DNA from: a virus | Lineage: Duplodnaviria; Heunggongvirae; Uroviricota; Caudoviricetes | Reading direction: 5' to 3' (one strand) | Length of the DNA: 5,266 nucleotides | Virus record (IMG/VR): IMGVR_UViG_2671180651_000012 | Coordinates: 1-5,266 of that record | In this document: positions 2,636 through 3,097 of the stretch, one piece after another | Layout: every line of letters starts with the position of its first letter | Position numbering within the stretch: position 1 is the first letter of the stretch | Position numbers and translations under genes: made by a program | The notes under the pieces: model-generated | Seen by the model: only the letters and a program-made list of their open reading frames with translations | The model's database searches: none | What the model was told of the DNA's origin: nothing

Positions 2636-3097
2636 TGTTTTTGGTTTTAACTGTTCCGCGTGCGCTTAGCCGCATTCACCGCATCACAAAATTCACTTTA
2701 AAAAGGGCGGCAGAGCAGCCACGGAGTAAAACTGATACCGCCAAACGTCACCAGAAAATTGATAACAGAGGGCGTTGCAGCGGGGTTGTCACTTAAGCGT
2801 ATGGTCAACCTGACAACCCGGTGTCCTCAACGGGGAAGGAATAATCCCGCCATACTTACCGCCGCGCCATTTCGCGGAGTGCCACAACCGGAAGCGCACG
2901 GTCGACGAAAATTTAACGACAGGCTATCTATGAACCAGCTACCTCGCCGTGCGCTTTCGCGTTATGCCCTGACTTTTCAGGGAAATATCCTTTCAGTAAA
3001 CTGTCAGTGCCGGATGCTCACCCGTGTCCGGCGCACGCACTCCACCTCACCCGTGGAGAACTCCTTAATTACCAACCTTAGCTTCGTTGGTTAGCTA
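2636..3097 (-). other. GC-rich non-coding segment dense in hairpins; candidate structured RNA or cis-regulatory element of the leftward operon
   Basis: Minus strand has stops in all three frames within a few codons throughout. The only plus ORF (2759-3094) is Arg/Ser/Thr-rich, has no RBS and looks like a GC-rich translation artefact. Perfect inverted repeats: 2783-2791/2811-2819 (9 bp), 2862-2866/2873-2877 (5 bp), 2967-2972/2977-2982 (6 bp), 3007-3014/3027-3036 (8 bp with 2-nt bulge), 3040-3045/3053-3058 (6 bp), 3071-3076/3086-3091 (6 bp). Confidence 0.4.
2696..2745 (-). terminator. candidate intrinsic terminator/attenuator on the minus strand
   Basis: On the minus-strand RNA, GGCGG (2738-2742) pairs with CCGCC (2706-2710) and is followed by a U5 run (2700-2704). 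The loop is long (27 nt) with only partial inner pairing, so this is weak. Confidence 0.25.

Follow-up and report, generated by a model that had tools for sequence, protein, structure and literature searches.

What occupies the gap of unusual length between two minus-strand genes of a phage early operon? The question was raised by positions 2636-3097 of the first 5,266 nt of the virus record IMGVR_UViG_2671180651_000012 (IMG/VR), a stretch that we analyzed as a whole and refer to as "the window." The initial annotation had described this segment as a hairpin-dense, non-coding interval, and had offered a structured non-coding RNA, a cluster of terminator and antiterminator elements, or the decayed remnant of a gene as possible explanations. 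We find that the first option is the right one: The segment encodes the small RNA DicF together with a structured precursor, and it is the known dicF locus of the dicBF operon. At a probability of roughly 95%, we read the spacer as the non-coding interval between ydfC and dicB in a leftward operon of the Qin/Rac type, carrying a dicF that is processed as in Escherichia coli K-12. The observation was thus largely real, but its object is already known: dicF, which was among the first bacterial regulatory RNAs to be described (1989-1990) and is still under study, is present in most E. coli genomes, and there is nothing new in the locus itself.

The spacer between ydfC and dicB encodes DicF

A search of the window against Rfam, which had been suggested as a check of the segment together with blastn, returned the DicF family (RF00039) on the minus strand at 2756-2705, scoring 75 bits where the gathering score is 48 (E = 8.3e-16) and with the model aligned over positions 1-52 of 52. 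At E values up to 10, DicF was the only family above its gathering score; STnc100 gave a sub-threshold match and the remainder was noise. The 53-nt RNA is identical to its K-12 counterpart at 52 of 53 positions, the difference (2715, G here and A in K-12) being located in the inner terminator stem, where it changes a U:A pair into U:G. The same bases are labelled "DicF antisense sRNA" in the record of phage Tritos. The assignment to the DicF family is based on the model score, on a 5′ single-stranded region followed by a terminator, and on the placement on the operon strand, with ydfC on one side and dicB on the other. A terminator scan matched 2722-2707, i.e., the inner portion of the DicF hairpin, and the consensus hairpin is retained in the 46 representative spacer copies that we used for alignment and for a consensus fold. 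Of the suggested terminator and antiterminator cluster, one real intrinsic terminator was recovered, namely that of DicF (2742-2700), which is the 3′ end of both the 53-nt RNA and a 190-nt RNA (role from PMC5069750, PMC9438474).

The gap is longer than initially described. A mechanical call of open reading frames (ORFs) lengthens dicB by 35 codons to a GTG at 2635 (97 aa), an extension that overlaps 105 nt of the structured dicB leader. Because dicB starts at the ATG at 2530, the true gap is 2531-3097, and the segment 2636-3097 makes up the upstream four-fifths of it. Hence, the initial claim of a gap without a credible gene between two minus-strand genes stands, while its lower boundary had been placed about 105 nt too high and its extent is 567 nt. 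The description of its coding content and composition was accurate: All three minus-strand frames of 2636-3097 contain 7 to 10 stops each, with a longest open stretch of 44 codons, and no minus-strand ORF within the spacer exceeds 36 aa. The sole long plus-strand ORF of the segment (2759-3094, 111 aa, with a TTG start) is rich in arginine, has no Pfam match, and is not credible as a gene. The G+C content of the segment is 52.2%, compared to 41.3% at 2065-2635 and 48.0% at 3098-3620. A search for transfer RNA and transfer-messenger RNA genes (ARAGORN, with a cloverleaf test) yielded none in the window.

Pairwise alignment of ydfC, the spacer, and dicB with the Qin prophage of K-12 gave 95% identity overall and ~97% within the spacer. 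The ydfC-dicB gap of K-12 Qin is exactly 567 nt as well, with dicF located 340 nt past ydfC and 174 nt ahead of dicB; dicF is carried in the 3′ untranslated region of the upstream gene ydfC. By megablast, 4597 of the 5426 complete genomes of E. coli contained the 462-bp segment, at a median of two places per genome and at up to 10. RefSeq leaves dicF unannotated in this copy, and a doubtful plus-strand ORF has been called over the spacer in one genome. With a missing dicF, a doubtful plus-strand ORF, and a dicB that is overextended by a naive ORF call, the locus is useful as an annotation check.

Folding and conservation of the spacer

At least seven perfect inverted repeats had been put forward as evidence of structure in the segment. 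We counted eight perfect stems of ≥6 bp with loops of ≤40 nt (nested stems included), as compared to 4.4 ± 2.7 in 300 dinucleotide shuffles, of which 12% reached eight (p ~0.12). As there is no enrichment over the shuffles, short perfect inverted repeats were dropped as evidence of structure. The segment contains one distinct perfect stem of ≥7 bp. The 9-bp stem 2783-2791/2811-2819, which had been singled out as rare, is indeed present and indeed rare, with stems of ≥9 bp expected 0.047 times per shuffle, and it corresponds to stem P4 of the precursor domain described below.

Folding energy was more telling than the count of repeats. The segment 2636-3097 folds with z = -2.3 relative to shuffles, and the minus strand of the whole 567-nt spacer with z = -6.1, where none of 100 shuffles was equally stable. 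The two longest stems of the spacer, both missed initially, are formed by 2889-2901/2947-2959 (13 bp with one mismatch) and, over a long range, by 2677-2696/2547-2566 (~20 bp). In the consensus fold of the 46 representatives, the first of these (the putative RNase III stem) and the long leader stem are both retained, as are the terminator of DicF and a multi-stem domain, with few broken pairs overall; the stem at 2889-2959 is kept in the 46 copies with wobble-consistent changes. The fold also predicts a weak pairing of the U-tract of the DicF terminator with the dicB Shine-Dalgarno sequence GAGGA (2542-2538), which is located at the base of the ~20-bp leader stem.

Through pattern scans, we obtained another 106 unique full-length copies of the spacer (87-100% identity). 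A core from 2977 to 2531 is common to all copies, and the best-conserved 60 nt of the spacer (2758-2817) lie directly upstream of DicF. At spacer positions 21, 43, 61, and 113-132, we observed break points where copies switch to unrelated sequence and, judging from these alignments, the ydfC-proximal ~120 nt (3097-2978) are a mosaic recombination hot zone. The 8-bp bulged stem at 3007-3036 that had been named alongside the 9-bp stem falls into this poorly conserved part, and for the region upstream of the RNase III stem, the consensus fold is free of pairs. Separately, phage phi367 carries a copy of the stretch 2996-3068 (92% identity) ahead of a PAPS-reductase gene.

A scan with a DicF pattern over one genome per species returned eight loci, too few for cross-species covariation, and several of these are probably E. 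coli contigs that were mis-binned. Elsewhere in the comparison, four loci with a chance match to the short anchor CAGGTTGACCA were excluded. We also encountered dicF of the E. coli type in the records of Aeromonas phage AP1 and Actinobacillus phage vB_Apl-pPE4 (81-99% identity), and in metagenome-assembled genomes labelled Veillonella (L008) and Collinsella (L010). These occurrences in records of unrelated hosts most likely reflect contamination, chimeric assembly, or mis-binning and not a true host range.

Proposed processing of the operon transcript

For K-12, a sole transcription start was reported for the operon, at the DicA-repressed promoter upstream of ydfA and with no internal promoter; transcripts either terminate after dicF or read through to ydfD, the 53-nt DicF requires RNase E, and a 190-nt species requires RNase III (PMC10448788). 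The 3′ end of the 53-nt DicF stems from Rho-independent termination, and RNase III acts on read-through RNA to yield a 72-nt form (PMC5069750, PMC9438474). According to the K-12 literature, DicF binds Hfq and represses the ftsZ, xylR, pykA, and manX mRNAs. We transferred these processing and target results to the window by virtue of the ~97% identity.

The RNA lengths can be mapped onto the spacer. Counting 190 nt back from the terminator leads to 2887-2894 (~2890), within the 3′ arm of the 13-bp stem, and 72 nt, counted downstream from the 5′ end of DicF, lead to ~2686, within the 5′ arm of the leader stem of ~20 bp. Because the two lengths end inside their arms, the two longest stems are the likely RNase III sites: The stem 2889-2959 is a probable site that generates the 5′ end of the 190-nt pre-DicF near 2890, and the stem 2696-2677/2566-2547 is probably a second one, generating the 3′ end of the 72-nt DicF near 2686. 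From the 5′ end of K-12 dicF and its RNase E dependence (PMC10448788), we infer that RNase E cuts at AA|UUUU (2758/2757), in the loop of a predicted hairpin.

Taken together, the minus-strand operon would be transcribed from a repressor-controlled promoter through ydfC and into the spacer, and many transcripts would end at the intrinsic terminator 2742-2700. RNase III cleavage of the stem 2889-2959 would then give a ~190-nt RNA consisting of the multi-stem domain (2759-2893) and DicF, from which RNase E would release the 53-nt, Hfq-binding DicF, which would pair with the ftsZ, xylR, pykA, and manX mRNAs and block cell division. In read-through RNA, RNase III would cleave within the ~20-bp stem of the dicB leader, which would leave DicF as a 72-nt RNA and dicB on an mRNA of its own; an effect of this cleavage on dicB translation is our own suggestion.

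Several points weigh against this interpretation. The evidence for the present prophage consists of sequence and pairing, the RNA species themselves being known from K-12. The published RNase III cut at "positions 813/814" uses a numbering that is irreconcilable with a 1146-nt transcript, such that our stem assignment draws on the RNA lengths only. The plus strand of the spacer folds nearly as well as the minus strand (z = -5.1), and the strand can therefore not be assigned from energy alone. The ydfC-proximal hairpins, including the stem at 3007-3036, are left unexplained by DicF. Finally, compensatory changes were seen in 4 of the 114 consensus pairs across the spacer among the 46 copies, which are close and thus of little power, so that most spacer stems are conserved rather than proven.

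A precursor domain that recurs without DicF

The covariation called for initially was found more clearly in one part of the spacer than across the whole. Upstream of DicF, the 5′ body of the predicted 190-nt RNA forms a domain (module B) in which a closing stem P1 surrounds the stems P2, P3, and P4. An alignment of 14 diverse copies of this domain showed 96.9% of cells paired and a compensatory change in 7 of 30 pairs, a number reached by 1 in 500 shuffles, with a covariation score of 0.19 as compared to 0.12 for shuffles and 0.06-0.09 for slid controls. A covariance model built from this alignment (R1) scored 149 bits in the window at 2893-2759, a start that coincides with the 5′ end predicted for the 190-nt RNA. 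No Rfam family covering the domain emerged from the scan of the window.

The domain is also found where DicF is not. A BLAST search against phage genomes recovered 2766-2888 in phage cdtI, Stx2c phages, Ayreon, 2H10, and Salmonella phage F1055, in each case without an accompanying DicF, and it matched 2781-2877 to a region of phage P1 that is annotated as "dicF-like." Of 77 further viral contigs, 73 contained the domain according to model R1, most of them with scores and downstream sequence like those of phage P1; the model gave no match in K-12 Rac. Across seven lineages, unrelated intrinsic terminators follow 10-40 nt after the domain. In phage P1, the domain starts ~20 nt past the -10 box of the annotated C1-controlled promoter Pban, and the RNA from Pban would, by prediction, be a primary transcript of ~190 nt.

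In phage cdtI (locus L133, 1400-1500, minus strand) and the Stx2c phages (L134), the domain is followed by another tail and terminator, UUUGGCGGUACCAG...CUGGUACCGCUCUUUUU. This tail begins with the UUUGGCGGUA of DicF and has no Rfam DicF match; it could represent a so far uncharacterised small RNA that acts on other targets.

The compensatory changes and the recurrence of the precursor domain across phages may be a new side result. As a tentative reading that we hold to be possible and rather less probable than its opposite, the ancestral unit could be a ~190-nt phage RNA with the multi-stem domain as its body, DicF being one of several exchangeable tails. On the same tentative footing, RNase III in Qin-type prophages would excise an RNA of the size of the primary transcript of phage P1. 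If this were true, the domain might itself act as a scaffold for the maturation or stability of interchangeable small-RNA tails, or it might control how far the adjacent terminator is read through. A function of its own would account for the stable and abundant 190-nt species in K-12, and for phage P1 and lambdoid phages retaining the domain while swapping the tail. In that case, the side observations on the domain and on the leader cassette described below would be of modest importance.

Alternative explanations for the segment

Could the spacer instead be a protein gene that decayed by frameshift and is intact in related prophages? Its unusual length would fit, and in one RefSeq genome, the plus strand is annotated with a hypothetical protein of 54 aa (WP_122994137.1) at positions that correspond to 2930-3094 (locus L002, 3295-3459). 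This is probably a spurious call antisense to the pre-DicF region; 29 of the 30 best genome matches have nothing annotated there. The plus-strand ORF has no Pfam match, and its 3′ half lies in the mosaic stretch. No gene separates ydfC from dicB in the 46 aligned representatives or in K-12 Qin, where the spacer has the same 567 nt, and conservation follows the RNA elements and not the reading frames, with compensatory changes in the stems. We consider a gene remnant very improbable. Even less probable, to the point of being negligible, is that the hairpins arose by chance in a GC-richer stretch or belong to a dispersed repeat of the repetitive extragenic palindromic (REP) or enterobacterial repetitive intergenic consensus (ERIC) type. 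The unexceptional number of short inverted repeats and the up to 10 copies per genome would agree with such an origin; against it stand the folding z score of the spacer and the DicF match, the placement of the copies in phage or prophage early regions in the annotated records that we examined, and the lack of a match to any Rfam repeat family.

A different possibility concerns an additional function, not the identity, of the locus: The domain at 2759-2893 might be a cis-acting leader that controls the adjacent terminator, through attenuation or through processive antitermination of the put type, and thereby sets transcription into dicB and recE. The terminators that follow the domain in seven lineages would suit this role, as would its position just past Pban and ahead of the tRNAs and ban in phage P1, and its placement immediately downstream of the repressor gene in cdtI and F1055, where nutL or putL would be expected. 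Furthermore, no N gene was seen in the window, and K-12 makes both terminated and read-through transcripts. However, the terminated 190-nt RNA accumulates in K-12, which argues for efficient termination after the domain; in the window, the domain is ~1 kb away from the promoter; and we saw no alternative antiterminator pairing with the terminator. A kinship of the domain with the HK022 put sites (putL/putR) was considered as well and dropped, as model R1 had no match at E values up to 1 in HK022 24000-31000, a region chosen to span the immunity region of a record in which the put sites are unannotated. Overall, we regard such a cis-acting role as unlikely, and retain the reading of the spacer as a DicF-encoding interval that is processed as in K-12.

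A leader shared by dicB and kilR

The 174 nt between DicF and dicB gave a full-length match to Rfam STnc100 (RF02076; 2707-2498, minus strand) of 34.7 bits, below the gathering score of 47, and we therefore treat it as a resemblance and not as membership of the family. Related leaders scored 28-40 bits on the same model, all below 47. The same leader precedes kilR in K-12 Rac and kil in Shigella phage 75/02, and weak STnc100-like matches were found upstream of tciA in the phages P1 and D6, as well as in phage phiSTEC1589 and a Klebsiella phage. This distribution suggests a mobile leader module that is distantly related to STnc100/PasD.

In K-12 Rac, the leader is preceded by a small RNA, KilS (b4833; within positions 223-503, minus strand, of the region NC_000913.3 1418000-1420500), which reaches 39 bits with the Rfam model of DicF. 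KilS aligns with the terminator region of DicF and is followed by the same ~175-nt leader upstream of kilR. It looks like a DicF paralogue, and DicF or KilS together with the shared leader looks like one cassette, perhaps an exchangeable one, that is placed before different FtsZ inhibitors. KilS was reported to possibly have its own promoter (PMC8175672), and DicF goes unmentioned in the paper that named KilS.

Genomic context

The genes around the spacer agree with the initial assignment to a leftward early operon of a Rac-like prophage: Next to recE, ydfD (DUF1482), dicB, and ydfC, the window contains a CI-like repressor gene and YdaS- and YdaT-like genes (Table 1). It is the early region of a Qin/Rac-type lambdoid prophage, with the spacer located within the leftward (PL-like) operon. 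The order recE-ydfD-dicB-[dicF]-ydfC is annotated in a strain of 99.8% identity and in phage Tritos.

Two further observations concern the region beyond ydfC. A 66-aa zinc-ribbon ORF (3409-3609, plus strand; "ECs_2282 family putative zinc-binding protein" in RefSeq) is antisense within the leftward operon, at a place where K-12 Qin and phage Tritos have ydfA and ydfB on the operon strand. The motif ACCYRTRGGTA gave six strand-matches at four sites (3935-3971, 4470-4504), as compared to 0.01 expected. Two of these sites are palindromic and lie to the left of the repressor gene, and the other two lie between the repressor gene and a cro-like gene; they are probably the OL and OR operators. A terminator scan match at 3971-3935 coincides with the left pair.

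Table 1. Coordinates of the features of the window and of related leaders in other records.
Feature	Position	Strand	Basis or remarks
recE	to 2064	minus	annotated near-identical records and ORF list
ydfD / DUF1482 gene	2157-2345	minus	Pfam DUF1482 match
dicB, 62-aa cell division inhibitor	2342-2530	minus	Pfam PF05358, 129.5 bits, profile 1-62/62; RefSeq near-identical locus
ydfC-dicB intergenic spacer of the dicBF operon, 567 nt	2531-3097	minus	same length in K-12 Qin, ~97% identity; folding z = -6.1
dicB leader, 174 nt	2531-2704	minus	~20-bp stem 2696-2677/2566-2547 around two conserved hairpins and a variable centre
DicF Rho-independent terminator	hairpin 2742-2706, U-tract 2704-2700	minus	terminator scan and consensus fold
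DicF small RNA, 53 nt	2705-2757	minus	K-12 b1574 coordinates; 5′ single-stranded part is the target-pairing sequence
Predicted hairpin UGUUAUCA/UGGUGACG	2749-2770	minus	consensus fold; DicF 5′ end in loop
Precursor domain (module B), ~125 nt	2774-2888 (model match 2759-2893)	minus	5′ body of the 190-nt pre-DicF
Stem P1	2888-2881/2781-2774	minus	closing stem around P2, P3, and P4
Stem P2	2877-2873/2866-2862	minus	
Stem P3, long	2861-2858/2822-2819, variable tip 2850-2846/2835-2831	minus	
Stem P4	2819-2811/2791-2783	minus	9-bp stem of the initial annotation
Long stem with variable tip	2889-2959, arms 2959-2947 and 2901-2889	minus	inverted repeat of 13 bp, one mismatch
ydfC-proximal stretch with small hairpins	2960-3097	minus	variable, mosaic; conservation 0.58-0.84
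ydfC, 72 aa	3098-3316	minus	RefSeq "protein YdfC" in near-identical locus; alignment with K-12 ydfC
CI-like repressor	4014-4433	minus	
YdaS-like and YdaT-like genes	farther along the window		divergent from the CI-like repressor
Sub-threshold STnc100-like leaders (other records)	L135 1467-1665; L137 1459-1667; L139 1467-1674; L132 135-254; L138 1501-1621		phage early regions

Comparison with known systems

The closest relative of the locus is the dicBF operon of K-12 Qin (b1574, RF00039), which has the same order ydfC-dicF-dicB-ydfD, the same terminator, and the same stems. The two differ in their surroundings: Downstream, the window has an intact recE where K-12 Qin has the pseudogene ydfE and IS2, the repressor/cro pair is a different one, and the plus-strand zinc-ribbon ORF replaces ydfA and ydfB. 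In addition, the C-terminal half of dicB diverges between the two.

In its mode of production, dicF resembles SroC and CpxQ, as an operon-internal or 3′ untranslated region-derived small RNA that is excised by RNase. Long intercistronic stems serve as RNase III sites in phage early transcripts, as in the lambda N leader and the T7 R sites. SroC and CpxQ are freed from polycistronic mRNA by termination and RNase E (PMC9438474).

The "dicF-like region" of phage P1, located in the leader of the ban operon, shares the multi-stem domain (104 bits with model R1) followed by an intrinsic terminator. It differs from the locus in the window in that its 3′ tail is unrelated to DicF, in that tRNA genes lie downstream instead of dicB, and in that its ~190-nt RNA would be a primary transcript and not a product of RNase III.

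The prophage small RNAs STnc100 (RF02076) and PasD have an outer stem and the hairpin CACCNGGAGGCACCNGGCAC in common with the dicB leader. Canonical STnc100 is located in the late region, downstream of stx2 (PMC12370729), whereas the dicB leader precedes a division inhibitor. KilS and kilR of Rac, finally, repeat the layout of dicF and dicB, with a small RNA and its terminator, a leader of ~175 nt that aligns over its whole length, and a gene for an FtsZ inhibitor. Yet, the 5′ region of KilS is unlike that of DicF and its score does not reach the Rfam gathering score, the inhibitor gene downstream is kilR instead of dicB, and Rac is without the precursor domain that precedes DicF in the window.

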